Below, piece after piece: positions 10,508 to 50,388 of a stretch of DNA of 56,564 bases; within the stretch, counting starts at the first letter, position 1; the number at the start of each line of letters is the position of its first letter. The stretch spans positions 1-56,564 of the forward strand of contig JAMOPY010000040.1 of the NCBI GenBank assembly GCA_027064305.1. The letters run 5' to 3'. Source of the stretch: Methanobacteriota archaeon (GTDB lineage Archaea; JAADCQ01; Methanopyri; Methanopyrales; Methanopyraceae). The position numbers and the translations under genes were made by a program. Under the pieces are notes generated by a model, which worked only from the letters and a program-made list of their open reading frames with translations, had not been told where the DNA came from and did no database searches.

Positions 10508-10528
10508 TCGTTACGAAGAACGTAACGA
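10508..10528. repeat. 21-bp palindrome, copy 1 (TCGTTACG AAGAA CGTAACGA)
   Basis: Perfect 8-5-8 inverted repeat just after a C/D sRNA. Confidence 0.85.
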
Positions 10529-10531
10529 CAA

Positions 10532-10594
10532 CCGGGATGACGACTGCCCGCGAAGGGGAGGCCCACCCGATGACCTACCCACCCTTGACCGACC
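10532..10594 (+). ncRNA. Possible box C/D sRNA, antisense to the LAGLIDADG 3' end
   Basis: C GGGATGA (10534-10540), C' CCGATGA (10567-10573), D CCGA (10589-10592); D' is degenerate. Confidence 0.5.
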
Positions 10595-10963
10595 ACGCCT
10601 CCCGCACCCGCTCCAACCCCTCCCGCGACCCGTGCACGCCCGCCTCCAACAGCTCCAACACCCTCCCCAACCGCTCCAACGCGCCCCGCTTCACCACCAC
10701 CCTACCCACCATCAGATCCACGAACCGACGCAGGTCCTCCCGACGGTAGATCTCGAGGTACCACACGCCGTCGCGCCGACGGTACAGGTGCCCCATCCCG
10801 AGCGTCTCACGGATCTCCTCGAGCACCCCCCCCGCTCCTTCTGCACGAAGACCACCTTGGTGGAAACCCGGTAACCCGCCCGGTACCGCCCATCCCGCAC
10901 GAACCGGACCACCACCGACCCCTCACCGTCGAAGAAACCCGCCACGTAGTCCAGCGAGACCAA
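10575..10963 (-). pseudogene. Single-motif LAGLIDADG homing-endonuclease-like gene split by a frameshift in a G8 run
   Basis: MVSLDYVAGFFDGEGSV...FVQKERG continues in another frame as VLEEIRETLGMGHLY...; the break is at the C8 run 10826-10833 on the + strand. Confidence 0.85.
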
Positions 10964-11030
10964 GCGACCGCACCCCCACCGCCCGCGCGCCCACCCCCGA
11001 TAAACCCCGCGATCCCGCCCCGAACCGTAC

Positions 11031-11046
11031 CGAAATCTTCATATAG
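11031..11046 (+). promoter_or_regulatory. Probable 16S rRNA promoter (BRE/TATA)
   Basis: CGAAATC TTCATATA, an AT-rich patch about 165 nt upstream of mature 16S. Confidence 0.55.
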
Positions 11047-11141
11047 AACGACCTTACCGCCCCCGACGGACGCGAGGGAGAGCCCCCCGATGGGGCCCCG
11101 GGCAACCCCGGGGGGAACCACCCCCGGGGCCCCGGGGCCGA

Positions 11142-11179
11142 CGCAAGCCCGCCCCCCGGGGCCGTGACGGCCCCGCCGC
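11142..11179 (+). other. 5' arm of the 16S processing stem (relaxed bulge-helix-bulge)
   Basis: Pairs with 12740-12777 as 21-bp and 10-bp helices around CGTGACG/AACGACA. Confidence 0.85.
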
Positions 11180-11208
11180 GGACCCAAATCCTTGCGGCCG
11201 CCACCCTA

Positions 11209-12724
<1,516 letters not shown>

Positions 12725-12739
12725 AGCGGAGGGGATGAT

Positions 12740-12777
12740 GCGGCGGGGCAACGACAGCCCCGGGGGGCGGGCTTGCG
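12740..12777 (+). other. 3' arm of the 16S processing stem
   Basis: Reverse complement of 11142-11179 except for the BHB-like core. Confidence 0.85.
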
Positions 12778-12804
12778 CGGGGGGCGATGACCTCCTTCCG
12801 AGAA

Positions 12805-12825
12805 TCGTTACGAGTTCCTTAACGA
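12805..12825. repeat. 21-bp palindrome, copy 2 (TCGTTACG AGTTC CTTAACGA)
   Basis: One mismatch to consensus; just past the 16S processing stem. Confidence 0.85.
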
Positions 12826-12828
12826 ATC

Positions 12829-12891
12829 GGGCGTGATGAATCACTCCCCTGCTGAGGGCGCCGCTGATGACTTTTCCTCCGACTGAGCGCC
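12829..12891 (+). ncRNA. Box C/D sRNA with canonical boxes, probably targeting 23S
   Basis: C GTGATGA (12833-12839), D' CTGA, C' CTGATGA, D CTGA (12883-12886); targets AGGGGAGTGA and GGAGGAAAAG resemble conserved 23S domain I sequences (recalled). Confidence 0.9.
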
Positions 12892-12952
12892 GGGATGATC
12901 GCAGTCCCGCAGGCGTACCGCGCCGGATGACGAGCCCTTTTAGGGGTGACCG
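12891..12952 (+). ncRNA. Box C/D sRNA targeting 16S
   Basis: C GGGATGA (12892-12898), C' CGGATGA, D GTGA (12946-12949); guides pair with 16S 11826-11835 and 11751-11761 (one G-U). Confidence 0.75.
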
Positions 12953-12963
12953 CCCCGGGCCAA

Positions 12964-12984
12964 TCGTTACGGATTTCATAACGT
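12964..12984. repeat. 21-bp palindrome, copy 3 (TCGTTACG GATTT CATAACGT)
   Basis: Directly after the last sRNA of the 16S trailer. Confidence 0.8.
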
Positions 12985-13044
12985 TGGATCGCCGGGTTAA
13001 TGGGCGGGGGTGCCGGGCCCGGGTCGGGGCGTCCGGCCTTGTCC

Positions 13045-13488
13045 ATGGTGGACGTGACGGGGAAGCGGGAGCAGGTGCGCATCGCGGAGGCTCGCGGGTT
13101 CCTGAGGCTGTCGGAGGAGGGTGTGGAGGCGCTGAGGAGGCGGGAGTCGCACCCGGAGGGGAAGGGTGACCCGATCGAGGCGGCGAGGTTGGCGGCGATG
13201 CTGGCGGTCAAGCGGACGCCGGAGCTGGTTCCGCACTGTCATCCGGTGCGGATTACGGGGGTCGACGTGGACGTGGAGGTGAAGGAGGATGGAGCGGAGA
13301 TGACGGTGCGGGTGAAGTCGGTGGGTCGGACGGGGGTGGAGATGGACGCGCTCACGGGGTTGGTGGTGGGGTTGGTCACGCTCTGGGACATGGTGAAGTA
13401 CGCGGAGAAGGATGAGGAGGGGCGGTACCCGCACACGAGGATCGAGGACGTGCGGGTGGTGAGGAAGGTCAAGAGGGACGTCGGGTGA
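13045..13488 (+). CDS. moaC: Cyclic pyranopterin monophosphate synthase
   Basis: MVDVTGK, KGD, AVKRTPELVPHCHP, TGVEMDAL, WDMVK. Confidence 0.95.
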   Translation: MVDVTGKREQVRIAEARGFLRLSEEGVEALRRRESHPEGKGDPIEAARLAAMLAVKRTPELVPHCHPVRITGVDVDVEVKEDGAEMTVRVKSVGRTGVEMDALTGLVVGLVTLWDMVKYAEKDEEGRYPHTRIEDVRVVRKVKRDVG

Positions 13489-13513
13489 GTGGTTTTTCCG
13501 CCCGCCTCGTCGC

Positions 13514-14035
13514 CTAGGCCTTGCCTTGGGCGTGGGCGACGGCGTGGGGTAGTAGTTCGAGGAGGAGTTCGGCGCCGAGTTCGGCGGCGTGGGGGGAGCC
13601 GGGGAGGCAGGCGACGGGGGTTTGGTTCACGACGTACATCTCGGCGCGGGTGAGGGCGGCGTGGGCGCCGATCTCCTTCTCGGAGTGGCGGCGGAAGAGC
13701 TCGCCGAAGCCGGGGAGGCGTTTGTCGGCGATGCGTTCGAGGGCTTCGATGGTGGTGTCGGTGGGGGTGATGCCGGTGCCGCCGGTGGTGATGATGGCGT
13801 GGGCGCGTTCGGTGAGCCATTTGACGGCGCCGGTGATCATGTCGGGCTGGTCGGGGGTGAGGAGTCGGTAGCGGACCTCGTGGCCGGCTTCTTCGAGCTT
13901 TCGTTGGAGGGTGTCGCCGGAGGGGTCGTCGGGGTCGTCGCCGCGGGCGGCCTGTTCGAACTTGCTGGTGCTGATGGTGATGATGGCGAGGTGGAGGGTC
14001 TCGGGGGCGTGTTGTAGGTGTTCGTGGAGGGTCAG
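13514..14035 (-). CDS. moaB: Molybdenum cofactor biosynthesis protein MoaB/MogA; apparent CTG start
   Basis: IITISTS, DPSG, TTGGTGITPTD.T.EA, LPGFGELFR, LPGSPHA; no ATG/GTG/TTG near the 5' end. Confidence 0.9.
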   Translation of the reverse strand: MTLHEHLQHAPETLHLAIITISTSKFEQAARGDDPDDPSGDTLQRKLEEAGHEVRYRLLTPDQPDMITGAVKWLTERAHAIITTGGTGITPTDTTIEALERIADKRLPGFGELFRRHSEKEIGAHAALTRAEMYVVNQTPVACLPGSPHAAELGAELLLELLPHAVAHAQGKA

Positions 14036-14061
14036 GGTGGGGTCCCCCGTTGGTCTCGGGG

Positions 14062-15333
14062 TTAGCGTGTTCGTAGGAGGCGTTTGGCGAGGGGTTGGGC
14101 CCAGGTGGCTTCGAGGATGACGCTGAGGAGGATGGTGAGGAAGGTGGCGACGAGGATGGTGCCGGCGAGGGCGTGTGGGGGCATTTGTCGGGTGATGTGG
14201 GGTGGGAGTAGGTGGGGGTGGGTGGTGATCTTGGTGTAGACGGTGCCGACGAGGGCGGCGGGGACGACGCCGCGGGGGCCTTCGAGGGCCAGGTAGAGGC
14301 GCTCTTTCAGGGTGAGGGGTTCCTTGGGGGGCAGGTAGGTGCCGGCGAGGACGCCGAGGGGTCGGGCGAGGAAGATGTTGCCGAGGGCGCAGAGGAGTCC
14401 GCCGAGCCAGTATCGTTTCAGGAGTGGGAGGCTGACGCAGGCGCCGAGGGTGGTGAAGACGATGATGCGGACGACGGTGGAGAGTTCCTCCATGAAGCCT
14501 TTGAGGAATTGGAGGTCCTCTCGGAGGTGCTCGTGTTCGGTGAGTCGGTTGCCGATGTACATGCCCAGGATGGCCACGGCCATGAATCCGCTCAGTTCGT
14601 ACCCGGTGAGGTGGGGTATGGTTTCCTCGCAGAGGTACCAGGTGGCGAGGGCGGCGCCGAGGGTGATGGGGACGACGTACTCCTTGAAGGGTTCTCGGGC
14701 GAGGAGTTGTTCGAGTGCGGCGCCCGCGATCGCGCCGGCGGCGGCGCCGCCGGCGGCGAGGGAGAGGAAGAGGGCGATGGGGTTGTGGTGGGCTCCGATG
14801 CCGATGGTGGAGAGGGAGGTCTTGGTGAGTACGACGCCGAGTGGGTCGTTGAACACGCTCTCGGCGATGAGGGTGGTGGAGATCTCGGCGGGTAGGTCGA
14901 GCTTGGTGAAGACGGGGATGAGGGTGGCGGGGTCGGTGGCGCACGTGATGGCCCCGTAGAGGAAGCCGATGGGGCTGAGGGGGTTCACGTGGAAGGCGAG
15001 GTTGAAGATGAGGGAGGAGAGGGCGGCCGTGATGAGGAGGGTGATGAGGTCGAGCTTGGCGACGAGGGTGGCGACGCGGCGGAGGACGTCGATGCTGATC
15101 TCGAAGCCGCCGTCGAGGAGGATGATGATGAGTCCGACGGTGCCTAGGAAGGGGAAGATTTGCTGGGCGTGTTCGGGTCGGATGATGCCGGTGAGGGGAC
15201 CGAGGAGGAATCCGAGGAGGAGTAGGAAGGGGATGTCGGGGAGTCGGGCTTCCTCGGAGAGTCGGGCGACGATGGCGCCGAGGGTGAGTAGTAGGGCGGT
15301 GTAGCCGAGGAGGGTGAAGAACCCGAACTTCGT
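14062..15333 (-). CDS. nhaP: CPA1/NhaP-type Na+/H+ antiporter; apparent ACG start
   Basis: ATDPATLIP, ESVFNDP, GPRGVVPA; the frame stays open 115 codons upstream of the called GTG and includes LPDIPFLLLLGFLLGP and GLIIILLDGGF. Confidence 0.9.
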   Translation of the reverse strand, partial: TKFGFFTLLGYTALLLTLGAIVARLSEEARLPDIPFLLLLGFLLGPLTGIIRPEHAQQIFPFLGTVGLIIILLDGGFEISIDVLRRVATLVAKLDLITLLITAALSSLIFNLAFHVNPLSPIGFLYGAITCATDPATLIPVFTKLDLPAEISTTLIAESVFNDPLGVVLTKTSLSTIGIGAHHNPIALFLSLAAGGAAAGAIAGAALEQLLAREPFKEYVVPITLGAALATWYLCEETIPHLTGYELSGFMAVAILGMYIGNRLTEHEHLREDLQFLKGFMEELSTVVRIIVFTTLGACVSLPLLKRYWLGGLLCALGNIFLARPLGVLAGTYLPPKEPLTLKERLYLALEGPRGVVPAALVGTVYTKITTHPHLLPPHITRQMPPHALAGTILVATFLTILLSVILEATWAQPLAKRLLRTR

Positions 15334-15352
15334 CGGTGCTCCCCCCGCCGTT

Positions 15353-15916
15353 TTAGGCCTTGGTGCACAGTTTGGCGAAGTTCTTCAGGATGTCGGGGCC
15401 GTACTCGGTGTATTTGAGCTCGGGATGGAACTGGACGCCGTAGAGTGGGAGTTCACGGTGGCGCATGGCCTCGACCTCGCACTTGTCGGAGCGGGCGGTG
15501 ACGAGGAACTCGTCCGGGACCTCCTTGACCTCGTCGCGGTGTGAGGTCCAGGCGGTGATGCGGTCGGGGAGTCCCTCGAAGATGCCCTCGTGGTCGAGGA
15601 TTTCGATCTCGGTGCGGGCGTAGTCTTCGCGGCCGGCGGCCCAGTCGACCCGGCCGCCGAAGACCTCGGCCATGAGCTGATGGCCGAGGCAGATGCCGAG
15701 GATGGGGAGCTCGCCGGCGAGTTCTTCGATGATCTGGGGGGAGTTGCCGGCGCGGTCGCGGGAGGGGCCGCCGCTGATGATGACGCCGTCGGCGCGGCGG
15801 CGGATGTCGTCGGGGTCGGTGGTGTTGGGGACGATCTCGGCGGGGATGTTGAGGTAGTCGTAGTTCTTGCGGATGAGGTGGACGTACTGGCCGTGGTTGT
15901 CGACGATGAGGATCAA
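15353..15916 (-). CDS. guaAA: GMP synthase glutamine amidotransferase subunit
   Basis: VDNHGQY, ISGGP, PILGICLGHQL, SHRDEV, GVQFHPE. Confidence 0.95.
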   Translation of the reverse strand: MILIVDNHGQYVHLIRKNYDYLNIPAEIVPNTTDPDDIRRRADGVIISGGPSRDRAGNSPQIIEELAGELPILGICLGHQLMAEVFGGRVDWAAGREDYARTEIEILDHEGIFEGLPDRITAWTSHRDEVKEVPDEFLVTARSDKCEVEAMRHRELPLYGVQFHPELKYTEYGPDILKNFAKLCTKA

Positions 15917-15931
15917 GCGGGGGTGGGTCCC

Positions 15932-17158
15932 CTAGGCGAGTTCGACGTCGGAGCCGGCCATCTTGACGCCGGTGATGCGGGCGACGTCCTCGGAGAGGGC
16001 GCGGAGGTCCTCCTTCTCGAGGTTGTGCACGTCGGTCTTGCCGGCGAGTTGGGCGAGCATCTTACACTCCTCGGTGATGACCTTGAGGTAGTTGGCGACG
16101 CGTTCGGCGGCCTCGTCGACGTCGAGGTTCTTGCGGAGTTCGGGGTCCTGGGTGCAGATGCCCTTGGGGCACTTGCCGGTGTGGCACTGCATGCAGGCGG
16201 TGCAGCCCATGGCGATGAGGACGCCGGTGCAGACGTACACGGCGTCGGCGCCGAGGGCGAGGGCCTTGGCCACGTCGGCCCCGTCGCGGATGCCGCCGGA
16301 GATGATGATATCGACCTCGTCGCGGAGTCCGAGCTCGTTGAGGGCCTCGACGGCCTGGACGAGGGCTGCGATGGTGGGGATGCCGGCGTTCTCGGTGGCG
16401 ATCTCGGGGGAGGCGCCGGTCCCGCCCTGCATGCCGTCGATCGCGATGATGTCGGCGCCGGCCTTGGCCGCGATCTTGACGTCCTCCTTGACGCGGCCGG
16501 GGCTGTACTTGACGATGATCGGGACCTTCCAGTCGGTGATCTCGCGGAGCTGCTCGATTTTCATCTTGAGGTCCTCAGGCCCGACGATGTCCATGTGCCG
16601 GGCCGGGGAGAGCGCGTCGGTGCCCTCGGGGATGCCGCGGATCTCCGCGATCTCCTTGGTCACCTTTTCGCCCATGAGGTGGCCGCCCATGCCGGGCTTG
16701 GCGCCCTGTCCGATCTTGATCTCGATCGCGTCCGCGGCGTTGAGGTACTCGGCGGACACGCCGAAGCGGCCGGACGCGTACTGGGCGATGAGCCACTCGG
16801 CCTCCTCGCGCTCCTCGGGGAGCATGCCGCCCTCGCCGGTGTTGGTCGCGGTCCCGACCTTGGCGGTGCCTCGGGCGACCGCGATCTTGGCCTCCCGGCT
16901 CAGGGCGCCGAAGGACATCGCGCCGACGAGGACGGGCGTGTCCAGCTTGAGGGGCCGCTCGGCGAACCGGTCCCCGAGCACGGTCTTGGTCCGGCACGGC
17001 TCCCGGTACTTGTCGATGGGCGGGCGGGAGACCTGGGCGGGTACGATGACCAGGTCGTCGAAGTGCGGGACCTTGCGGCTCGTGCCGAACCCTCGGACCA
17101 CGTACTGCCCGGTCTCGGCCTTCTGCTGGATCTCCTTCACGTGGTCACGCCACCACAC
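15932..17158 (-). CDS. Archaeal glutamate synthase FMN-binding subunit
   Basis: AMSFGALS, NTGEGG, QYASGRFGV, EIKIGQGAKPGMGGHL, GCTACMQCHTGKCPKGICTQ. Confidence 0.95.
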   Translation of the reverse strand: MWWRDHVKEIQQKAETGQYVVRGFGTSRKVPHFDDLVIVPAQVSRPPIDKYREPCRTKTVLGDRFAERPLKLDTPVLVGAMSFGALSREAKIAVARGTAKVGTATNTGEGGMLPEEREEAEWLIAQYASGRFGVSAEYLNAADAIEIKIGQGAKPGMGGHLMGEKVTKEIAEIRGIPEGTDALSPARHMDIVGPEDLKMKIEQLREITDWKVPIIVKYSPGRVKEDVKIAAKAGADIIAIDGMQGGTGASPEIATENAGIPTIAALVQAVEALNELGLRDEVDIIISGGIRDGADVAKALALGADAVYVCTGVLIAMGCTACMQCHTGKCPKGICTQDPELRKNLDVDEAAERVANYLKVITEECKMLAQLAGKTDVHNLEKEDLRALSEDVARITGVKMAGSDVELA

Positions 17159-17311
17159 CCGCGGCCGCCCCCGGGGAGCGTTCCGCGTTCACCCGGGGGG
17201 AGGGTGTTTTAAACCGGTCGGGAGTCCTCGGGCCGGGGAGGAGCGCCCCGCGGGCCCGATCGCGACCACAGGTTTTTTAAGTCCGGTCCGGAGGGGGCGG
17301 GACCGGGGGGA

Positions 17312-17388
17312 GGCCCCGCAGTCTAGCCTGGATAGGACGCGGGCCTGCGGAGCCCGTAGCCCGGGTTCAAATCCCGGCGGGGCCACCA
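17312..17388 (+). tRNA. tRNA-Arg(GCG) with genomic C8 and encoded CCA
   Basis: GGCCCCG/CGGGGCC acceptor stem, anticodon GCG 17347-17349, TTCAAAT T-loop, C at position 8 (17319); TATA TTTTTTAA at 17273-17280. Confidence 0.97.
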
Positions 17389-17397
17389 GTCGGCGCA

Positions 17398-17418
17398 TCG
17401 TTACGATTATCGTAACTA
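17398..17418. repeat. 21-bp palindrome, copy 4 (TCGTTACG ATTAT CGTAACTA)
   Basis: 9 nt after the tRNA CCA; overlaps the rimI stop. Confidence 0.85.
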
Positions 17419-17895
17419 TTTTCGCAGCCGCTTGACCATGATGACGGCCGTCTCCCCGTCCTGGTAGTACCCCGGTTCCCGCCGCTCCACCCGGTACCCC
17501 AGCCGCTCGTAGAACCGGCGCGCGGGGAAGTTGGACTCCCGCACCTCCAGCCGCACCACGTCGCACCCGCGCTCCCGGATCCGGCGCTCCGCCTCCCGCA
17601 TGAGGATCGTGCCGATCCCGCACCGCCGGTGCTCCGGGTGTACGGCGATGGAGACGATGTGACCCTCGTTCAGCCACCTCCGGACCTCGAAGATGACGTA
17701 CCCGACCACGCGCCCGTGCACCTCCGCCACCAGGAAACCCTCCGGGTTGTTGGACAGGGTGTACAGGAAGACGTAGGTGGGGTAGGGGGACTTCGGGAAC
17801 GCCAGCTCCTCGATCTCGGTGATCTCGGGGATGTCCCGCCGGTGCGCCCGGCGCACCCGGACGCGACGTCCCCGGCGGTCCACGTACTCGATCAC
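17416..17895 (-). CDS. rimI: RimI/Ard1-like N-acetyltransferase
   Basis: GHIVSIAVHPEHRRCGIG, LEVRESN..A..FY..LGY, YYQDGE. Confidence 0.9.
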   Translation of the reverse strand: MIEYVDRRGRRVRVRRAHRRDIPEITEIEELAFPKSPYPTYVFLYTLSNNPEGFLVAEVHGRVVGYVIFEVRRWLNEGHIVSIAVHPEHRRCGIGTILMREAERRIRERGCDVVRLEVRESNFPARRFYERLGYRVERREPGYYQDGETAVIMVKRLRK

Positions 17896-18695: not shown

Positions 18696-18708
18696 CCGGC
18701 CTCCCCCA

Positions 18709-18729
18709 TCGTTACGATTATCATAACGA
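18709..18729. repeat. 21-bp palindrome, copy 5 (TCGTTACG ATTAT CATAACGA)
   Basis: About 10 nt past the 5S rRNA 3' end. Confidence 0.85.
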
Positions 18730-18739
18730 TTTTCGGGGT

Positions 18740-18870
18740 GGACGGCGGCGGCATCCCGGGCTTCCCGCGCCCTCTCGGAGCGCAGTACCACCCGGGACGC
18801 GGCCGGGCTTAACTTCCGGGTTCGAGATGTGGCCCGGGTGTGGCCCCGGCCGCTGTGGCCGCCGCCGTCC
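18740..18870 (-). rRNA. rrf: 5S rRNA (stand-alone)
   Basis: Minus strand reads GGCGGCCACAGCGG...CACACCCGG...TCGAACCCGGAAGTTAAGCCC...GGTACTGCG..CCGAGAGG; 13-bp terminal stem; TATAAGTA upstream at about 18890-18897. Confidence 0.95.
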
Positions 18871-20297: not shown

Positions 20298-20299
20298 GC

Positions 20300-29617: not shown

Positions 29618-29667
29618 CCCTCTCACCCCGGGGTTCGGCCTCACGATCCTTCCGCCGCCCCGGATTA

Positions 29668-29688
29668 TCGTTTTGATAATCATAACGA
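29668..29688. repeat. 21-bp palindrome, copy 6 (TCGTTTTG ATAAT CATAACGA)
   Basis: 24 nt past the stop of the rubrerythrin-like gene. Confidence 0.7.
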
Positions 29689-29712
29689 TTCGCCCGGTGG
29701 GGGGGAAGGGGC

Positions 29713-30099
29713 CTACTCCTTCAGCCGCTCCAGGGCCGCCTCCAGCATCTTCTTGTGGTGCTTCTCGTCGTAGGCCGTGGCCTTCAGGATGGTGATCACC
29801 TCGTCGTCCAGCTCGTCGGAGTGGTGGTCCGCCTCGTCCATCCTCGTCTCGTGGGCGTTCTGCTCGCCCTCGATCATCTCCTCCATCTTCTCGATCAGCC
29901 CGTCCAGGCTGTTCTCCACCTTACCGGCGATCAGCGCCGCGGCGGCCGCGTGCCGGGCCTCGTCCATGGCGATCTGCTCCAGTAGGTCGGCCACGTCCGG
30001 GTAGCCCTGCTCCCGCGCGACGATGGCCATGGCCATGTAGATGCCCACCTCGGTGGTCTCACCCTTGAACCACTCCTCCAGGTACTTCTCGAACTCCAT
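29713..30099 (-). CDS. Rubrerythrin-like/ferritin-like di-iron protein
   Basis: GET.EVGIY.AMA..A..QGYP, DEARH, E, DEKHH di-iron motifs. Confidence 0.88.
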   Translation of the reverse strand: MEFEKYLEEWFKGETTEVGIYMAMAIVAREQGYPDVADLLEQIAMDEARHAAAAALIAGKVENSLDGLIEKMEEMIEGEQNAHETRMDEADHHSDELDDEVITILKATAYDEKHHKKMLEAALERLKE

Positions 30100-35086: not shown

Positions 35087-37291
35087 GTGGAGCGTAGGGA
35101 CGCGGTTCTGGCGCTCCTAACTTTCTTGCTCGGGGCGGGGATCGCGTCCCCCGCCCTGAACTACGGTTGGAACTGGTTCCCGAGCGGGGCCGACGCGCGG
35201 GGCCACATGACCAAGGTCTGGATGCTCGAGCGACTGTGGTCGCTCGGGGATCGTCCCTATCCACCGTGGTCCGACTACTGGTACTGCGGGTATCCTTTCC
35301 TGTGGTACTACCCGCCCCTCTCCTACTTCGTCCCCGCCCTGATGAGCCGCGCCACGGGGGCCGACGTGCTCACGGCGTGGAAGGTCTGGACCGTCCTCGC
35401 GTACGCGCTGGCGGGGCCCACCGTCTACGCGACGGCCCGACTCTTCGGGGCGGGACCGGCGTCCGCGTTCCTTGCGGCCTTCCTGTACCAGACCTCGTAC
35501 AACCACCTGGAGATCACGTTCACCGAGGGTCGCATTCCCACCGTCGCGGCCGTGGCCCTGTACGCGCTGGTTCCGGGACTCCTCGTCGCGCTGTACGACC
35601 CGCGCCGGGACCGGCGCAGGCTCGCCGGCCTTCTCGCCCTACTCCTCGCGCTGACGCTGCTCACGCACCACAGCACCGGTCTGGCCGCCCTGGCCCTGTG
35701 CCTCGCGTACGCGCTCCTGCGACTCCTTCACGCGACCGCCCAGGCGCTCCGGGGTCGGCTCGCGGTCCCGGACCTCCTGCCCGACCTGCCGGGCCACTTC
35801 TGGTCCCTCACGGCCGTGGTCCTCGCGCTGATGATCGCCGCCTGGTGGCTTTACCCCGCCCTGCACTACCGGACGTACCTGTATACGACCAAGCCCCGCT
35901 GGTGGGTGCACATGTCCTCGGTTCACGACCCGCTCGACCTCTTCGTGCCCGGGTACTGGAAGACGCGCTACGCCAAGTACGTCGGGGCCGCCCAGTTCTT
36001 CCTGGGCTGGGCGGGACTACTCCTGGCGGTCCGGCGCCGGTCCCGCGCCTTCCTGCCTTTCGCCGCGCTGCTCCCGTTGGCCGTCTTCCTCTCCTTCGGG
36101 CTCGTGCTGCAGCGGGAGATGGAGGCGATCGGGTTCGAGCCCAAGTGGTTCCTGATGTTCTCGACCCCGGTGCTGTGCGCGTTCGGGGGGCTGGCGGTCG
36201 AGCGGCTCCGGGCCGCCGTGAGCCCGCGCCGGCTCGCCCCGGTGCTGGCCCTGCTCTGCTGCGGGTGCCTCTGCGACGCGGCCCTGGGCCTCTACCACGC
36301 GGACCGTCCCGTGCACTACACCCGGTCCGAGCTGGCCGCGCTGCTGTGGGTGAAGGGGCACGCGGGCCCGTGGGACCGGGTGGCCGTGGTGGGGTACCGG
36401 GCGATGTGGGGGATGTCCCCGTACCTGACGGGGAGGCCGGCCGTGTTCGGCTGGTTCCGTGAGGGTACGACGATCCGGGACGTGATCGTTCAGTACCAGC
36501 GCTCCTTCAAGCGGAGGGAGGTGCACCGCGCGCTGTTCATCGGTCGGGTGCTGGGGACCCGCTACCTGGTGCTCAGCGCCCGCAAGCCGTACGCCCGGGA
36601 GTGCATGCGCGAGCTGCGGAGGCTGGGGCTGCGGCCCGTGCGGGACTACCGGTGGGTGCGGGTGTACGAGTTCCGCGTCCCGATGGGGTACGAGCTGGAC
36701 GGGGTGAAGTCGGTCTTCCTGGGCAACAAGTACCGGTACATGAGGTTGTGCAGGCTGGCCCGGTTCGACCCGAGGGTGGTGCCGGCCTACGCCTTCACCC
36801 GGAGCGTGCGGTGTCGGCTGGTTCGGGAGGCGCGCCCGGAGGTGGTCGTGATGGATCGGGCGCCCACGCCGGAGCAGGTGCGGGAGCTGCGGAGGTTGGG
36901 GGTGCGGAGGGTCCTGGTGATGACGTACGGGCCGGGCCGGGTGGAGACGGTGGAGGGGGTGCCGGTCCGTTACCTGCGTCCGCTGGAGATCGTCCGGGAG
37001 CTACCCCGCCGGCACCTGCGCCCGGTCGCCGTGCGCCTGGGGCACGCGCGGGTGTGGGTGGGGGGTCGGGGACTCGTGTGGGTGAAGGTGCCGTACTTCC
37101 CGTGCTGGCGGCCGGTCCGGGGGGAGCGGTTGGGTGGTATCGACAACATGTTGCTGATCCGAACGCCGGGGCCGACGGTGGTAGCGTTCCGGTGGAGGCC
37201 GTCCGGGTGGGTGTGTTCGGTCTCGGTAGCGGGGTTGGGGGTGTCGCTGCTGTTGGTGGCCCGGCGTCGGTCCGGTTCCCGATTGTTTTGA
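35087..37291 (+). CDS. PTPS-related (GT-C-like) membrane protein
   Basis: D..GH..K, WSDYWYCGYPFLWYYPPL, many TM segments and a soluble C-terminus. Confidence 0.8.
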   Translation: MERRDAVLALLTFLLGAGIASPALNYGWNWFPSGADARGHMTKVWMLERLWSLGDRPYPPWSDYWYCGYPFLWYYPPLSYFVPALMSRATGADVLTAWKVWTVLAYALAGPTVYATARLFGAGPASAFLAAFLYQTSYNHLEITFTEGRIPTVAAVALYALVPGLLVALYDPRRDRRRLAGLLALLLALTLLTHHSTGLAALALCLAYALLRLLHATAQALRGRLAVPDLLPDLPGHFWSLTAVVLALMIAAWWLYPALHYRTYLYTTKPRWWVHMSSVHDPLDLFVPGYWKTRYAKYVGAAQFFLGWAGLLLAVRRRSRAFLPFAALLPLAVFLSFGLVLQREMEAIGFEPKWFLMFSTPVLCAFGGLAVERLRAAVSPRRLAPVLALLCCGCLCDAALGLYHADRPVHYTRSELAALLWVKGHAGPWDRVAVVGYRAMWGMSPYLTGRPAVFGWFREGTTIRDVIVQYQRSFKRREVHRALFIGRVLGTRYLVLSARKPYARECMRELRRLGLRPVRDYRWVRVYEFRVPMGYELDGVKSVFLGNKYRYMRLCRLARFDPRVVPAYAFTRSVRCRLVREARPEVVVMDRAPTPEQVRELRRLGVRRVLVMTYGPGRVETVEGVPVRYLRPLEIVRELPRRHLRPVAVRLGHARVWVGGRGLVWVKVPYFPCWRPVRGERLGGIDNMLLIRTPGPTVVAFRWRPSGWVCSVSVAGLGVSLLLVARRRSGSRLF

Positions 37292-37303
37292 GTCTCGTAA
37301 CGA
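37283..37303. repeat. 21-bp palindrome, copy 7 (TTGTTTTG AGTCT CGTAACGA)
   Basis: At the junction of two convergent genes; right arm is perfect. Confidence 0.65.
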
Positions 37304-37317
37304 TACGCCGGGCGGGC

Positions 37318-44089: not shown

Positions 44090-45183
44090 ACGTGGACTCC
44101 TCGATCCTCACGAACCTGATCTACATCATCCTCTCGTTCCTGGTGTTCTGGATCCTGGCGCAGCTCTACTACCGGTGGCTGCTCGTTCGGAGGATCCAGG
44201 GGGAGATCGACGAGATCTCCCGGATCGACGAGCGGGTCCAGGAGATCGTCGTCTCCCGGGCCCGGTGCGACCGGGACGAGGCCCGGACCATCGTCAAGCG
44301 CGCCGCGAACATGTTCATCGTGCAGCCCGTGCAGCTCGACCCGCACGGGATCATCGAGCGGCTGGAGAACCTCGTGGAGCGCAGCGAGGACAAGCTCCGT
44401 TCCTACGCCCGGATCCTGACCGGGAAGCGGAAGGGCGCGGACGTGGACAACATGAGCAAGGCCCTCAGCTGCGTGCTCACCATCCACGCCCTCACCCAGT
44501 ACCTCCGGCACCTCCTCCTCTCGGCCAAGAAGACGAACAACCTGCAGCTCCTCCTGCTCCTCACCATGGTCCTGCCCGAGCTCAAGCAGTACATCAAGAG
44601 CAACTACGAGGGCGCCAAGGCCTTTCTCGACTGCGTCCCCATCGGCGACAGCGTCGGCCCCATGGTCGCCGCCCGATTGATCGGGGACGCCGAGACGCGG
44701 GAGATCGAGCGGGACACCGTGGCGGCGGAGCGCGAGTACAAGGGGCGCCGCCTGGTCATCGTCAAGGCGAACGGCCCGGGCGGTAACCTGGGTCGACTGG
44801 GCCGCGCGGTCCGTCGGCTGGTGCGGGAGTACGGGGACGTGGCCAAGATCATCACCATCGACGCCGCCCTGAAGCTGGAGGGCGAGCGGACGGGGAAGGT
44901 GAGCGAGGGCGTGGGCGTCGCGATGGGCGACCCGGGGCACGAGAGCTACAAAATCGAGCAGATCGCCGCGGAAGAGGGGATCGACCTCGACGCGGTCGCG
45001 ATCAAGATGAGCGCGACCGAGGCCGTCACCCCGATGCCGAAGCCCGTGGTCGACGCCGTGGAGGAGGCCGCGAAGCGCGCGCTCCGGCTCGCCGAGGAGG
45101 CCCCCGAGGGCTCCACCGTCATCATCGTGGGCGTGGGGAACACCGTCGGCGTCCCGAACAACCGACCGTACACCGGGGGGTGA
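44086..45183 (+). CDS. DUF1512-family membrane-anchored protein
   Basis: PVQLDPHG, PIGDSVGP, KANGPG, IDAALKLEGE.TG.V.EGVGVAMG, GVGNTVG. Confidence 0.8.
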   Translation: MNVDSSILTNLIYIILSFLVFWILAQLYYRWLLVRRIQGEIDEISRIDERVQEIVVSRARCDRDEARTIVKRAANMFIVQPVQLDPHGIIERLENLVERSEDKLRSYARILTGKRKGADVDNMSKALSCVLTIHALTQYLRHLLLSAKKTNNLQLLLLLTMVLPELKQYIKSNYEGAKAFLDCVPIGDSVGPMVAARLIGDAETREIERDTVAAEREYKGRRLVIVKANGPGGNLGRLGRAVRRLVREYGDVAKIITIDAALKLEGERTGKVSEGVGVAMGDPGHESYKIEQIAAEEGIDLDAVAIKMSATEAVTPMPKPVVDAVEEAAKRALRLAEEAPEGSTVIIVGVGNTVGVPNNRPYTGG

Positions 45184-45190
45184 GCGCCGG

Positions 45191-46258
45191 CTGATCTGCC
45201 ACCGGTGCGGGCGCGAGGCGACCACGCTCATCGAGGGGCTGTGCCCCGAGTGCTTCCTCGAGGAGCACCCGATGATCCGGGTGCCGGAGGACCTGGAGGT
45301 GCGGGTCTGCGCCCAGTGCCTCAGCCGTCACACCGGGCTCCGCTGGGAGCACCCGCCCGGGGACGCGGAGGACGTCGAGTCCCTGCTCATCGAGTACGCC
45401 CTCCGCGCCCTGGAGGACGAGATGCGGGTCCTTCAGGGGGCCCGGGTGGACGTCCGGCCCCTGGAGGTCAAGGGCGAGCCGGGCGGCCCCGGCTCCCGCG
45501 TGCAGGTCGCGTTCCTGGTCGAGGGCGAGTGGGAGGTGGAGGGGGAGCGACTCCGCCGGGAGTATCACCTTAAGGTCCCGGTCACGTTCACCCTCTGCCA
45601 CCGGTGCATGAAGTACCGGTCCGGGTTCTACGAGGCCATCCTGCAGGTGCGCTCCTTCCGCGGCGGGCTCACGGAGTCCGAGCGGAAGGAGCTGGAGGAG
45701 TTCGTGACGCGGTCCGCGGAGTCCCTGCTCAAGCGCGACCCGATGGCCTTCATCTCGGACGTGAAGCACCGGGACGAGGGCATCGACTTCTACCTCGGCT
45801 CGACCAGCGCCGCCCGGAAGCTGGCCCGACGCCTCGTCGACCGGTTCGGCGGGACCGTGCGGGAGTCCCACGAGCTGGTCGGCGTCGACAAGGACACGGG
45901 CAAGCGGCGCTACCGCACGTCCATCTCCGTGCGGCTCCCACACCTCCGGCCCGGGGACGTGATCGAGCTCGAGGGCGCCCCGTACGAGGTCACGGGCGTG
46001 GGCGAGCGCTGCACCCTCCGCCGCCTGACGGACGGGACCCGGGTCCGCCGGGACTGGGAGGAGCTCGCGGAGGCCCGGCGCCTCAAGCCCGAGCCTGCCA
46101 TCGTCGTGAACACCGACCCGCCCCAGGTCGTGCTGGAGCGCACGGGCGAGACCCTCGACTGCTTCGACACCGGGGCCCTCGACGGGTTAGAAATAGGGCG
46201 GCGGGTGACGGTCGTCGTCCTGGACGAGGGCGCCGTGGTCCTACCCGAGGAGGACTGA
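45191..46258 (+). CDS. nmd3: Nmd3-family ribosome biogenesis protein; apparent CTG start
   Basis: CHRC...GLCPEC upstream of the first ATG, CAQC, CHRC, YEAILQVR, GIDFYLGS, LVGVD. Confidence 0.9.
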   Translation: MICHRCGREATTLIEGLCPECFLEEHPMIRVPEDLEVRVCAQCLSRHTGLRWEHPPGDAEDVESLLIEYALRALEDEMRVLQGARVDVRPLEVKGEPGGPGSRVQVAFLVEGEWEVEGERLRREYHLKVPVTFTLCHRCMKYRSGFYEAILQVRSFRGGLTESERKELEEFVTRSAESLLKRDPMAFISDVKHRDEGIDFYLGSTSAARKLARRLVDRFGGTVRESHELVGVDKDTGKRRYRTSISVRLPHLRPGDVIELEGAPYEVTGVGERCTLRRLTDGTRVRRDWEELAEARRLKPEPAIVVNTDPPQVVLERTGETLDCFDTGALDGLEIGRRVTVVVLDEGAVVLPEED

Positions 46259-46271
46259 CGGGGGGCGCGCC

Positions 46272-47243
46272 ATGGCGGAGGACGCCTGGGAGCTCGTCAC
46301 GCGCAACGCCGTCGAGATCGTCACGGAGGAGGAGCTCCGCCGGATACTCGAGGAGAAGGACGAGCCCGTCGCCTACGTCGGGTTCGAGCCCTCGGGCGAC
46401 ATCCACCTCGGGCACAAGCTCGTGATCGACAAGATGGTGGACCTCCAGCGGGCCGGGTTTCGGGTGATCATCCTGCTCGCCGACCTGCACGCGTACCTGA
46501 ACGAGAAGGGCTCCCTCGAGGAGGTGCGGGAGCTGGCCGAGTACAACAAGCGCTGCTTCACGGCCCTCGGCCTCGACCCCAAGCGCACGGAGTTCGTCCT
46601 CGGCTCCGAGTTCCAGCTCGAGGAGGACTACGCCCTCGACGTGTACCGCATGGCCCGCCACACGACCATGCGCCGCGCCCGCCGGAGCATGGACATGATC
46701 GCCCGCCGCGAGGAGAACCCACCCGTCTCCCAGGCCGTCTACCCGCTCATGCAGGCGCTCGACATCGTGCACCTCAACGTGGACCTCGCCGTGGGCGGCC
46801 TCGAGCAGCGGAAGATCCACATGCTCGCCCGGGACGTCCTGCCCAAGCTCGGCTACGACGCCCCCACCTGCCTGCACACCCCCATCATCCACGGGCTCGA
46901 CGGCGAGGAGAAGATGTCCTCGAGCAAGGGGAACTACATCGCCGTGAACGACGACCCCGAGACCATCCGCGAGAAGCTCCGGCGGGCCTACTGCCCGGCG
47001 GGCGAGGCCGAGGGCAACCCCGTCCTCGAGATCTACCGGTACTTCATCTTCCGCGAGTACGACGAGGTCACGATCGAGCGCCCCGAGAAGTACGGCGGGG
47101 ACGTGACCTACACCAGCTACGAGGAGCTCGAGCGCGACTTCGTCAACGAGGACCTCCACCCGCTCGACCTCAAGGAGAACGCCGCCCGGTACCTCGCCGA
47201 GATCCTCGAACCCGTGCGCAAGGCCGTGGGCACCCCCTCCTGA
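46272..47243 (+). CDS. tyrS: Tyrosine--tRNA ligase
   Basis: [39 protein letters not shown]. Confidence 0.98.
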
Positions 47244-47258
47244 CGGGGGCCCACCCCC

Positions 47259-47564
47259 TCGCGCCTCCGCGGCCGGCTCCTCCTCCGCGACCTGCCCCCG
47301 CCCCTCCGCGACGGTCCCCTCTGGGAGGGCGGACCCCGCGGCTTCCGCGCCCGCGCCCGCGTCGACGCGGACCGCGTGGAACTCACCTTCCGGGCCCGGA
47401 GCCCGGCCAAGGCCGCGTCGGGACTGGACGCGGTGCTCGCCTGCGTCCGCGTTTCCGAGGAACTACTTAACCTGGTACGGGAACGATCGGCCCGGGGTGA
47501 TCCCGGTGGGCAAGCGCATCGACGACGAGACCCTGAAGAAGATCCGGCTGCCCAAGGAGGGTGA
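47259..47564 (+). CDS. Probable KEOPS subunit Pcc1-like protein; start and stop uncertain
   Basis: Frame open from 47244: [12 protein letters not shown]...[39 protein letters not shown] resembles the Pcc1 pattern; fills the gap between tyrS and aIF-1A. Confidence 0.5.
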
Positions 47565-47841
47565 GATCTTCGGCGTCGTGGAGAAGATGCTCGGGGACGA
47601 CCGCGTCCAGGTCCGGTGCGTGGACGGGAAGACCCGGATCGCCCGCATCCCGGGCAAGATGCGCAAGCGCGTCTGGATCCGCGAGGGCGACGTCGTCCTC
47701 GTCAAACCCTGGGACTTCCAGCCGGAGCGCGCCGACGTCACCTGGCGGTACACCCGGGTCCAGGTGGACTGGCTCAAGCGCAAGGGCAAGCTGGACGAGC
47801 GGGTCATCAAGCTCCTCGAGGAGATCATCCCCGGCGGCTAA
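47506..47841 (+). CDS. eif1a: Translation initiation factor aIF-1A
   Basis: [43 protein letters not shown]. Confidence 0.97.
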
Positions 47842-47862
47842 CCCCGACCGGGAGGCGCCCCG

Positions 47863-48651
47863 TTGGCCGAGGACAAGTACTTCTCCGCCATCGAACGGGT
47901 CGACGTCGAGCCCCAGAAGGTGAAGCGCCTGGAGAAGACCCTCGAGGACCTCAAGGTCGAGGAGGAGGTCTTCGACCAGTACACCCTGATGACCCTCTAC
48001 GAGCTCTCCCGACGCGGCTACCTTGACGGGCTGATGGGCTTCGTCAAGACCGGGAAGGAGGCGAACGTCGCCCGGGGCGTCCGCGGCGACGAGCTCGTCG
48101 CCGTCAAGCTCTACCGCGTCGCCACCAGCGACTTCCGACGCATGTGGCGCTACATCCGGGGCGACCCCCGCTTCCACCGGATCGGGCGCAAGCGCCACCA
48201 GATCGTCTACGCCTGGGCCGAGAAGGAGTTCAAGAACCTCGCCCGCGCGTACGAGGCCGGCGTCCGCTGCCCCGAGCCCATCGCCCACATGAACAACGTC
48301 CTGATCATGGAGTTCATCGGCGACGACGAGGGCAACCCCTACCCCCTGATCAAGGACTACCCGCCCGAGGATGAGGAGACCGCGGAGGAGGTCTTCTGGG
48401 GCATCCTCGAGGACTACCGGCGCATGTACCGCCGGGCCGAGCTCGTGCACGGGGACCTCAGCGAGTACAACATCCTGTACGGGGGCGACGGAGACTACCG
48501 CATCATCGACTTCTCCCAGGGCGTCCTCCTCGACCACCCCCTGGCCGAGGAGCTCCTCCTCCGCGACATCCGCAACGTGACCAACTTCTTCACCCGACTC
48601 GGGGTCGACACGCCCCCCATCGACGAGCTCGTGGAGGAGATCCGGGGGTGA
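47863..48651 (+). CDS. rio1: RIO1 serine/threonine kinase
   Basis: TGKEANV, AVKLYR, WAEKEFKNL, MEFIG, HGDLSEYNIL, IDFSQ. Confidence 0.95.
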   Translation: MAEDKYFSAIERVDVEPQKVKRLEKTLEDLKVEEEVFDQYTLMTLYELSRRGYLDGLMGFVKTGKEANVARGVRGDELVAVKLYRVATSDFRRMWRYIRGDPRFHRIGRKRHQIVYAWAEKEFKNLARAYEAGVRCPEPIAHMNNVLIMEFIGDDEGNPYPLIKDYPPEDEETAEEVFWGILEDYRRMYRRAELVHGDLSEYNILYGGDGDYRIIDFSQGVLLDHPLAEELLLRDIRNVTNFFTRLGVDTPPIDELVEEIRG

Positions 48652-49301
48652 GCTCCGTGGCCGAGGAACCCCACGAGGAGGCGCCCGAGGGCGAACCCGA
48701 GCTGGCCGAGGAGTTCTACGAGCGGGTGGAGCGCGTCAAGATCCCCAAGGACCGGATCGGCGTGCTCATCGGCCGGAACGGCGAGACGAAGCGGTACATC
48801 GAGCGCAAGACCGGCGTCGAGCTGCGCATCGACAGCAAGACCGGGGAGGTGGAGATCCGACCGACCAAGCGCGTGAAGGACCCGCTCGACCTGCTCAAGG
48901 CCAAGGAGTGCGTGCTCGCCATCGGCCGCGGCTTCTCGCCCGAGCGCGCGTTCCGCCTCCTCCGGGAGGACGACGCCAGCCTCGAGATCATCAACCTGTA
49001 CGAGCTCGTCGGCCGCAATCCCAAGGCCCTCGAGCGACAGCGGGCCCGCATCATCGGCCGAGAGGGCCGCACCCGCGAGCTCATCGAGGAGCTCAGCGGG
49101 GCCGACGTCTCCATCCGAGGCAAAACCGTCGCCCTCATCGGCAAGCCCCGAGAGCTCGAGATCGCCCGCAAGGCCATCGAGATGCTCGCCTCCGGCGCCC
49201 CCCACGGCCGCGTGTACCGATACCTCGAGAGCGAGCGCCGCCGCATGAAGCGCGAGAAGCTGCGACTCTGGAAGGACTCCGAGCCCCCCGAGCTCCTCTG
49301 A
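48648..49301 (+). CDS. KH-domain pre-rRNA processing protein (Dim2/Pno1/Krr1-like)
   Basis: RIGVLIGRNGE, AIGRGFSPE.A, RIIGREGRTR, GAPHGRVY. Confidence 0.93.
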   Translation: MSSVAEEPHEEAPEGEPELAEEFYERVERVKIPKDRIGVLIGRNGETKRYIERKTGVELRIDSKTGEVEIRPTKRVKDPLDLLKAKECVLAIGRGFSPERAFRLLREDDASLEIINLYELVGRNPKALERQRARIIGREGRTRELIEELSGADVSIRGKTVALIGKPRELEIARKAIEMLASGAPHGRVYRYLESERRRMKREKLRLWKDSEPPELL

Positions 49302-49314
49302 CCGGGGCGCCACC

Positions 49315-50352
49315 ATGACCGCCCTTGACCGACTCCGCTCACTCGCCCGCCGCGTCCTCCGCTGCCTCGAGCACGACGAGCCCCTCGAGGTGCCCAAGCG
49401 CACCACCTCCAACATCCGGTACGACCCCGAACGGCGCGTGTACACCCTCGGCGACGACGCGTACCGACGCCGCCCGAACACCCTCCGCGGCGCCAAGAAA
49501 CTCGCCCAGATGATGAGCGTCGCCGCCTTCGCCAAGGAGCTCGTCGAGACCGGCCGCTCCGCCACCCTCCGCGAGCTGTACTACACGAGCGAGGGCTGGG
49601 ACCTCCCCTTCAAGGACCAGCGCGAGAGCGACGCCATCGTCGAGGACCTCGAGGCCGTCCTCGGGCTCAAGCGCGAGGAGTTCGGCATCTGGCCCGAGGA
49701 GGACGGGGCCGCCGTCTACGGCGACCTCCTCGTCGAGGAGGACGGGGTCAAGATCCACGCCGAGCGGGCCGGCATCAGCGGCTACAACATCCCACCCAAC
49801 GTGGACGCCGTCGAGCTCCTCGACTGCGGGGCCGAGCGCGTCATCGCCGTCGAGACCATGGGCATGTACCGACGCCTCGTTCAGGAGCGCGCCCACGAGA
49901 AGCTCGACGCCCTCATCGTCGGACTCAAAGGACAGGCCGCCCGAGCCACCCGCCGCCTCCTCCGCCGCCTCAACGAGGAGCTCGACCTCCCCGTGTACGT
50001 GTTCACCGACGGCGATCCCTACGGCTGGCACATATACATGGTCATCCGGAGCGGGAGCGCCAAGGCCGCCCACCTGAACCACGAGCTCGCCTGCCCCGAC
50101 GCCAAGTTCATCGGCGTCACCGCCACCGACATCGTCGAGTACGACCTCCCCACCGAACCCCTCACCGAGGCCGACCGCAAGCGCATCGAAGAGCTGAAAC
50201 GGGACCCCCGCTACGACAGCGAGTTCTGGCGGCGCGAGCTGGACCTCCTCGCCCGACTGGGCAAGAAGGCCGAGCAGCAGGCCTTCGCCAAGTACTCCCT
50301 CGACTACGTGGTCGAGGAGTACCTCCCGACCAAGCTGGAGGAGCTCGAGTGA
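49315..50352 (+). CDS. top6A: DNA topoisomerase VI subunit A
   Basis: TLRELYY, DQRESD, VET, KGQAARATR, FTDGDPYG, KAEQQA. Confidence 0.95.
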   Translation: MTALDRLRSLARRVLRCLEHDEPLEVPKRTTSNIRYDPERRVYTLGDDAYRRRPNTLRGAKKLAQMMSVAAFAKELVETGRSATLRELYYTSEGWDLPFKDQRESDAIVEDLEAVLGLKREEFGIWPEEDGAAVYGDLLVEEDGVKIHAERAGISGYNIPPNVDAVELLDCGAERVIAVETMGMYRRLVQERAHEKLDALIVGLKGQAARATRRLLRRLNEELDLPVYVFTDGDPYGWHIYMVIRSGSAKAAHLNHELACPDAKFIGVTATDIVEYDLPTEPLTEADRKRIEELKRDPRYDSEFWRRELDLLARLGKKAEQQAFAKYSLDYVVEEYLPTKLEELE

Positions 50353-50367
50353 CCGCGCCCCTGGGAA

Positions 50368-50388
50368 ACGTTGCAACGACCGTAACGA
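50368..50388. repeat. 21-bp palindrome, copy 8 (ACGTTGCA ACGAC CGTAACGA)
   Basis: Between convergent top6A and the secreted-protein gene; right arm is perfect. Confidence 0.65.

Follow-up and report, generated by a model that had tools for sequence, protein, structure and literature searches.

A 25-bp palindrome at the 3′ ends of genes in Methanopyri and its possible reading as a boundary of transcription units

Apart from oligo-T tracts and the cleavage factor aCPSF1/FttA, little is understood so far of how transcription units are ended in archaea, and T-tracts are scarce in GC-rich hyperthermophiles. The stretch of DNA analyzed here, which we call the window, is a contig of 56,564 nucleotides (contig C40) from a Methanopyri genome, and it carries eight copies of a short palindrome, located among other places downstream of a tRNA gene, a 5S rRNA gene, and a protein gene. 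The question raised by this locus is what such an element does behind genes of such different kinds, and whether it is read as DNA or as RNA. Our favored answer, to which we give a probability of roughly 45%, is that the palindrome is a Methanopyri-specific 25-bp inverted repeat that a sequence-specific protein with two-fold symmetry, probably a dimer, would read as double-stranded DNA, and that would mark the downstream boundary of transcription units.

A rigid inverted repeat at gene ends

A first-pass annotation of the window, made from the letters alone, had listed palindrome copies starting at 10508, 12805, 12964, 17398, 18709, 29668, 37283, and 50368, and our pattern search recovered every one of them. 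Searching for TCGTTACG-N5-CGTAACGA with up to three mismatches gave nine matches in the window where 0.03 were expected, and none of 100 shuffled versions reached nine; the additional match, at 12793, has three mismatches and overlaps the copy at 12805. The GTT-N10-TAAC spacing that had been called invariant is the same in 8 of 8 window copies, and the remark that the arms are AT-rich for this genome was borne out as well, since the window is 66–74% GC. When the 73 matches that the same pattern (at most three mismatches) has in the window's whole genome were aligned, the symmetry extended to 25 bp, AATCGTTACGA-N3-TCGTAACGATT, and the full unit is the 25-bp inverted repeat AATCGTTAYGA-N3-TCRTAACGATT. 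A symmetrized matrix of 25 nt finds exactly the same eight window copies and no others.

With the symmetrized matrix, we scanned the window's genome (G000; 1.21 Mb in 50 contigs, 69.8% GC) and a complete congener (G002; 1,694,969 bp, 61.2% GC), where genes were called with a simple codon-usage model whose stops are exact and whose starts, taken from the longest open reading frame (ORF), are crude. With a cutoff of 12 bits, G000 yields 87 sites and its reversed control none; with a cutoff of 16 bits, G002 yields 115 and its reversed control one. Although called features cover 85% of G000, 70 of its 87 sites are intergenic, and 51 of these 70 face the 3′ end of a gene at a distance of 30 nt or less. 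Regions between convergent genes hold a site in 24 of 183 cases in G000, tandem regions in 39 of 711, and divergent regions in 2 of 172, and one of these two divergent regions contains the window's 16S gene, which is missing from the feature list. The picture in G002 is similar, with 103 of 115 sites intergenic and with sites in 33 of 254 convergent, 58 of 981 tandem, and 8 of 254 divergent regions. The first-pass annotation had called for a genome-wide scan of this kind against controls, and its outcome is that 3′ ends are favored and divergent junctions are nearly empty. On the same counts for divergent and convergent regions, we rejected a transcription-factor operator at promoters. Copies of the palindrome are single, with no clusters and no tandem arrays, and along the G002 chromosome they are evenly spread (Kolmogorov–Smirnov p 0.60). 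An origin- or partition-type site was rejected on the basis of this even spread, from which the earlier suggestion of a chromosome-organizing site likewise gains nothing.

At tRNA genes in G000, the palindrome begins 4–8 nt past the end given by aragorn in 22 of 26 calls. The four calls without it comprise two at contig edges and two that have no promoter-like box upstream, where all the other tRNAs have one, so that 22 of the 24 assessable calls carry a site. The two calls that lack both the box and the palindrome (35064–35155 on contig C31 and 59186–59277 on contig C46) are probably false positives, and the palindrome could therefore serve to check tRNA annotation in this lineage. Two more sites in G000 follow tRNA-like 3′ ends that aragorn missed. 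The same arrangement is found at 32 of 33 tRNAs in G002 and at 30 of 30 in each of two further congeners (G001 and G003), where the modal start of the palindrome is 8 nt past the end of the Rfam tRNA match, that is, the CCA plus 5 nt (22 of 30 tRNAs in G003).

Other stable-RNA genes of G000 with the palindrome behind them are those for 5S, 16S (past the processing stem), RNase P RNA (contig C15), and signal recognition particle (SRP) RNA (contig C11). Measured from the end of the Rfam match, its offsets in G002 are +7 for 5S, +81 for 16S, +144 for 23S, +21 for RNase P RNA, and +11 for SRP RNA. One rigid palindrome after every stable-RNA class tested, across species 9% apart in GC, is an unusually clean signal. 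A regular-expression search for C/D-box small RNAs (sRNAs) found merely two or three per genome, which is too few to judge whether the palindrome follows them. The rRNA genes themselves are unlinked, with 16S, 23S, and 5S lying apart and partly on different strands, each with its own palindrome behind it; in G002, they occupy 516776–518289 (16S), 510731–510854 (5S), and 585271–588370 (23S), and the 23S gene is preceded, at a distance of about 200 nt, by a tRNA with its own palindrome.

Protein genes that carry a site downstream include those for thermosome, a doublet histone, L7Ae, S10, S15, ferredoxin, P-II, ArgRS, and rubrerythrin, and for several of these families, going by their names, high expression would be expected. 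Site-bearing genes have higher values of a codon-usage proxy for expression in G000 (p 0.006); the corresponding p value in G002 is 0.077, which is not significant. The 20 nt that precede the palindrome after protein genes are pyrimidine-rich and G-poor, with a C fraction of 0.5–0.7 in G000, and in G002 this tract is 70% pyrimidine compared with 51% after genes that have no site. On the other side of the palindrome, downstream positions +1 to +6 are 51–60% G in G000. The pyrimidine-rich tract between stop codon and palindrome recalls the C-rich loading sites of termination factors.

Comparison of G000 with G002 gives a measure of how well the element is kept. In 20 orthologous tRNA pairs, positions 1–7 and 17–20 of the palindrome are 0.80–1.00 identical, while the three central bases are 0.25–0.75 identical and the next 30 nt downstream 0.26–0.33. 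Of the 864 protein pairs that are reciprocal best matches (median identity 77%), 27 have a site after both members, 13 after the G002 member alone, 15 after the G000 member alone, and 809 after neither, which corresponds to an odds ratio of 112. From these sequence comparisons, we conclude that the palindrome is under selection and that its placement is kept at orthologous genes.

With at most one mismatch allowed, we searched 31 genomes and found 4–41 copies in each of the six from the genus, none in 24 of the 25 from other archaeal genera, and one copy in the remaining genome. Across 185,579 species genomes (one per species), the exact 9-3-9 form occurs in 46 stretches, and several exact copies in one genome are seen only in Methanopyri or Methanobacteriota records of metagenome-assembled genomes (15 of the 46 stretches), the rest being single per genome. 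Thirteen Halorubrum species and several Prevotella/Segatella genomes have a single copy each of the exact form, and these copies are presumably conserved single loci that have no relation to the Methanopyri element.

The core of the palindrome has been described before. A motif CGTTA(N)9TAACG was reported about 10 bp downstream of genes for tRNAs in Methanopyrus kandleri AV19 (Tong et al., BMC Genomics 2017; PMC5217627), and the portions of that paper on which we draw call it organism-specific, connect it with roughly half the tRNA genes, and offer the guess that it is a signal for a 3′ maturation enzyme. The claim of the first-pass annotation that no such archaeal element had been described was thus mistaken, and because the core has been in print since 2017, the element itself is not new. 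The two share the same core, the N9 spacing, and a location some 10 bp past tRNA genes, and we regard the present element as that motif in another member of the lineage; the lineage restriction of the published motif, as given there, holds among the genomes that we searched. Unlike the motif as it appears in those portions of the paper, the palindrome described here follows essentially all tRNAs, the other stable-RNA classes tested, and dozens of protein genes, lies at convergent junctions, spans 25 bp, and looks DNA-like. What is new is its reach beyond tRNAs, its presence in all six genus genomes searched, its 25-bp extent, and the evidence for reading at the DNA level. In the searched parts of a small-RNA study of M. 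kandleri (PMC3695527) the motif is not mentioned, and our literature searches found no work on its function or on its presence after genes other than tRNA genes.

Reading as DNA or as RNA

For the strand tests, each site was oriented by the gene that it follows. Counts of G:U pairs on the sense and antisense strands are 30 versus 26 in G000 (n = 47), 48 versus 62 in G002 (n = 61), 20 versus 30 in G001, and 15 versus 25 in G003, so that an excess of G:U relative to C:A is seen on the transcribed strand in none of the four genomes, and three have the opposite bias. Compensatory double changes number 18, compared with an expectation of 24.2 from shuffling the right halves between sites, and at the two variable pair positions the halves are independent of each other (Fisher p 0.40 and 0.45); the view that mismatches are not compensatory, formed earlier on the window copies, is thereby extended to the whole genome. 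Pairs at about 30% of stem positions are not Watson–Crick. Under standard parameters, the hairpin energy at 98°C is negative for no site (0 of 47 in G000 and 0 of 61 in G002), and no stable hairpin is predicted at 85–98°C, in line with the earlier opinion that a stable RNA hairpin is unlikely in a hyperthermophile. The cytoplasm of Methanopyrus is reportedly far saltier than the standard folding parameters. A hairpin extended through the flanks was also considered and rejected, as flanks paired with their own partners give 6.42 matches versus 6.45 for permuted partners (p 0.59) and duplex energies of −16.7 versus −17.1.

The spacing between the two halves is rigid. CGTTA-N9-TAACG occurs in 42 copies in G000 and 34 in G002, and each other spacing from 0 to 24 gives between none and two. 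Lone half-sites number 13, with 13.4 expected, and none of them is at a 3′ end; two independent one-way signals are ruled out by this chance-level number of lone half-sites together with the rigid spacing. The palindrome consists of two conserved blocks about one helical turn apart with a fixed spacer between them. Independent halves, a fixed spacer, and two such blocks are typical of a site that a dimeric protein reads as double-stranded DNA.

An RNA-level signal would work differently, with the transcribed palindrome forming a hairpin or being bound as RNA, and in this form directing 3′ trimming or maturation or protecting the 3′ end. The proposal made in 2017 by Tong et al., a target of the tRNA 3′ maturation enzyme by the account in the portions cited above, is of this type, and it is consistent with the tight spacing at tRNA ends with its mode at CCA plus 5 nt, with the better conservation of the half nearer to the gene, and with the copies apparently internal to operons and in the 16S trailer, which must be transcribed. 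Yet the pair counts argue against it in their lack of a G:U excess and of compensatory covariation and in their share of non-Watson–Crick pairs, as do the lack of a stable predicted hairpin at 85–98°C (at standard salt) and the lack of site-specific pairing in the flanks. The palindrome is also found after protein genes, rRNAs, RNase P RNA, and SRP RNA and at convergent gene pairs, and it is therefore not tRNA-specific. On balance, we consider an RNA-level signal unlikely.

What a bound protein might do

Under the favored reading, a protein bound to the palindrome would slow or stop RNA polymerase arriving from either side, the transcript would end a few bases past the gene, possibly with the help of aCPSF1/FttA, a cleavage factor universal in archaea, and read-through into neighboring units would be limited. 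Both the binding and the effect on transcription are what we infer from the arrangement of the sites. The setting for such a mechanism would be a genus that lacks canonical signals and rescue factors. Runs of T5, which usually serve as terminators in archaea, are rare at gene ends, as they follow 31 of 1017 genes and precede 33 of 1017, and only 1 of 46 palindrome-bearing genes has one within 60 nt. The zinc-ribbon family of TFS/TFIIS (PF01096) was found in none of the six genus genomes (G000–G005) and in all four archaeal controls, which agrees with the statement in a review, as far as the part cited here goes, that the only archaeon lacking TFS, which restarts polymerase after stalling, is M. 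kandleri. All six genomes have the aCPSF1/FttA family. The mTERF family was detected in none of the six, and since no control genome was positive either, this search is uninformative. The small Methanopyrus chromatin protein 7kMk is one conceivable candidate for the binder. A more sweeping proposal, that Methanopyri, being without TFS and largely without oligo-T, use a dedicated dimeric protein on the palindrome as a bidirectional terminator for all stable RNAs and some protein genes, strikes us as possible and somewhat doubtful.

Promoters bear on whether sites separate one unit from the next. tRNA genes carry upstream boxes that resemble the TFB recognition element and TATA box (BRE/TATA); one gene with such a box begins 49 nt past the palindrome of another tRNA and therefore belongs to a separate transcription unit. 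After tandem sites, a promoter score of at least 10 bits is reached in 10 of 37 cases, compared with 60 of 318 controls. The tRNA promoters in G000 and G002 lie 40–50 nt upstream and have the form G(A/T)AA-NN-TTTATAAA; those at C33 21361 and C50 19000 in G000 contain TAATCGTT.

Several observations weigh against a boundary that stops polymerase. The palindrome follows only about 5% of protein genes (approximately 40–60 genes), and among the four CRISPR arrays detected in G002, one has a site within 400 nt. As judged by the crude starts, 21 of 58 tandem sites in G002 lie less than 45 nt from the next called start, and at least 7 of these are followed immediately by a G-run that resembles a Shine–Dalgarno sequence with a start codon 10–28 nt further on. 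Genes that start just past the palindrome must therefore be transcribed through it or from within it, and the element is no absolute terminator. The window copy at 12803 has the 16S gene on one side and a C/D sRNA candidate on the other, too close for a promoter to fit in, and because the next gene or the trailer sRNA lies directly beyond the palindrome, a strict roadblock is unlikely at copies of this kind. At tRNA genes, the palindrome begins only about 5 nt past the encoded CCA. In bacterial and yeast work, a roadblocked polymerase halts 10–15 nt early, so the 3′ end of the tRNA might stay unfinished. The half of the palindrome nearer to the gene is better kept than the distal half, at 28 versus 12 sites in G000 (p 0.017) and 34 versus 15 in G002 (p 0.009), a bias that counts against the favored reading because a simple symmetric dimer predicts none. 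The proposal in the first-pass annotation of a dimeric-protein site that acts as a roadblock or insulator therefore stands in part: the DNA-level, two-fold symmetric mark at 3′ ends is found genus-wide, and a strict roadblock is unlikely at the operon-internal and 16S-trailer copies.

A protein could also occupy the palindrome without any role in stopping polymerase, for instance to recruit a topoisomerase, to form a boundary between chromatin domains, or to handle conflicts between replication and transcription. Gyrase at the repetitive extragenic palindromic (REP) elements of bacteria is a model for relaxing supercoils ahead of busy polymerases. A role of this kind shares the DNA-level evidence with the favored reading, is compatible with read-through at operon-internal copies, and would suit an unusual set of topoisomerases in the lineage and the several site-bearing families expected to be highly expressed, for which the codon score is raised in G000 and only weakly in G002. 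It needs, however, no fixed distance of a few bases to RNA 3′ ends, the even spread along the chromosome reveals no domain-scale pattern, and it has no known partner, and we judge it rather improbable. If REP elements are taken as the model for the palindrome itself, it would be a selfish REP-like repeat spread by a RAYT/IS200-type transposase, and as an imperfect extragenic palindrome enriched at 3′ ends and convergent junctions, it does look the part. Some REP elements and bacterial interspersed mosaic elements also bind gyrase or IHF. Yet the Y1 transposase family (PF01797; RAYT/IS200-type) was found in 0 of 6 genus genomes when six control genomes were positive, so that no RAYT gene is present by this search, and the palindrome differs from such repeats in occurring as single copies, outside clusters and arrays, at a position fixed within a few bases of tRNA ends and conserved at orthologous sites. 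We give this account hardly any credence.

Alternatively, the symmetry might come from two weakened promoter-like boxes in inverted orientation, which would sequester TBP/TFB or give rise to short divergent transcripts. The half AATCGTTAYGA weakly resembles the local BRE/TATA consensus GAAA-NN-TTTATA, and a promoter matrix built from 33 tRNA upstream regions gives palindromes a mean best score of 4.55 bits compared with −3.56 for random intergenic 37-mers. Scores of at least 8 bits are reached by 22% of palindromes versus 3.8% of the background, the preferred register is consistent (84 of 230), and the G-runs past the palindrome lie about where a start site would be. Real promoters nevertheless score far higher (mean 13.9 bits), TATA boxes look different from the invariant C-G step and the YGA, and divergent junctions, as noted above, are nearly empty of sites, all of which makes promoter-like boxes a very improbable explanation.

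Compared with known systems, a protein-bound palindrome that ends transcription would work like the sites of Reb1/Nsi1 in yeast, TTF-I for mammalian Pol I, and mTERF1 in mitochondria, in that a DNA-bound protein downstream of rRNA or tRNA genes would halt the polymerase. The sites of Reb1, TTF-I, and mTERF are asymmetric and polar, whereas the Methanopyrus site is palindromic with a mild proximal bias only, which is a further point against the favored reading; no Myb- or mTERF-type protein is implicated in Methanopyrus. Archaeal oligo-T terminators have the same position and presumably the same job, and the palindrome differs from them in having no T-run. Like the intrinsic and bidirectional terminators of bacteria, it is an inverted repeat located at 3′ ends and used by convergent genes from either side, but its arms are AT-rich, the sequence after it is G-rich, there is no U-tract, there are no compensatory changes, and what is conserved is sequence rather than structure. 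Our literature searches turned up no protein-roadblock terminator for archaea. If a dedicated protein on the palindrome does act as a bidirectional terminator, this would be the first archaeal protein-roadblock termination system, analogous but unrelated to Reb1, TTF-I, and mTERF, and it would extend to archaea a mechanism of eukaryotic Pol I and of mitochondria and link it to the loss of TFS in the genus. Even if the roadblock is wrong, the palindrome can be relied on to flag gene ends and unannotated small RNAs when Methanopyri genomes are annotated.

The eight window copies and their surroundings

The positions of the eight copies and of the genes beside them are given in Table 1. The first-pass annotation had placed each copy within about 30 nt of a 3′ end, and this holds for the copies after tRNA-Arg, 5S rRNA, and the rubrerythrin-family gene and for copy 8, which is 13 nt and 18 nt from the stops of its two converging genes; the copy starting at 10508 is 44 nt from an ORF stop, and the one starting at 12805 is 77 nt from the 16S end.

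Table 1. Palindrome copies and associated features in the window
Feature	Position	Strand	Details
Palindrome copy 1	10506..10530		exact 21-nt core at 10508-10528; 32.4 bits; 44 nt past the stop of minus-strand ORF 10575-10826
Palindrome copy 2	12803..12827		37.5 bits; after the 16S processing stem, 77 nt past the 16S end at 12725
Palindrome copy 3	12962..12986		38.2 bits; where the 16S trailer ends, with the MoaC gene just downstream
Palindrome copy 4	17396..17420		38.7 bits; 7 nt after tRNA-Arg(GCG)
Palindrome copy 5	18707..18731		42.5 bits; 11 nt past the 3′ end of the minus-strand 5S rRNA gene
Palindrome copy 6	29666..29690		41.6 bits; 22 nt past the stop of the rubrerythrin-family gene; kept after the G002 ortholog
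Palindrome copy 7	37281..37305		33.8 bits; convergent junction; not found after the G002 orthologs
Palindrome copy 8	50366..50390		26.0 bits, the weakest; convergent junction of topoisomerase VI A and a cyclase-like gene; not found after the G002 orthologs
16S rRNA gene	11209..12725	+	1464.9 bits
Candidate C/D-box sRNA, located between copies 2 and 3 in the 16S trailer	12829..12888	+	canonical TGATGA/CTGA boxes
tRNA-Arg(GCG)	17312..17388	+	CCA encoded
5S rRNA gene	18743..18866	-	69.3 bits
Rubrerythrin-family gene	29713..30099	-	PF02915, E 2.1e-12
C-rich, G-poor tract between the rubrerythrin-family stop and the palindrome	29691..29712	-

Copy 2 lies about 23 nt past the 3′ strand of the 16S processing stem and ends 1 nt before the sub-threshold C/D match and 5 nt before its TGATGA box. 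The candidate in question matches several archaeal C/D families, all of them below threshold, with a best score of 23.9 bits and E values of 0.005–0.009. Copy 3 comes after a second, weak C/D-like stretch. Copy 7 overlaps the end of the plus-strand gene at its junction and is 12 nt from the stop of a CBS-domain gene. The window has no 23S gene, which is absent from the G000 assembly.

In the G002 genome, an AT-rich conserved 25-mer lies about 126 nt from one end of the CRISPR arrays at 1112650, 1297745, and 1363582, and the same 25-mer is found reverse-complemented 127 nt before the array at 1306914; it is probably part of the leader and not related to the palindrome. Four small-RNA sequencing runs contain a G002 locus.

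A C/D sRNA had been proposed beside copy 1, and this was not upheld, as Rfam has no C/D-box match there and the copy lies near the stop of a minus-strand ORF instead (Table 1). C-box-like GGGATGA motifs flank copy 1 on the plus strand and match no C/D family. The minus-strand ORF, which in its longer extent spans 10575–10960, lies by the 16S promoter region, has no Pfam match, and is interrupted near a C run at about 10830; its counterpart in G002 (518513–518920) also adjoins the 16S gene.

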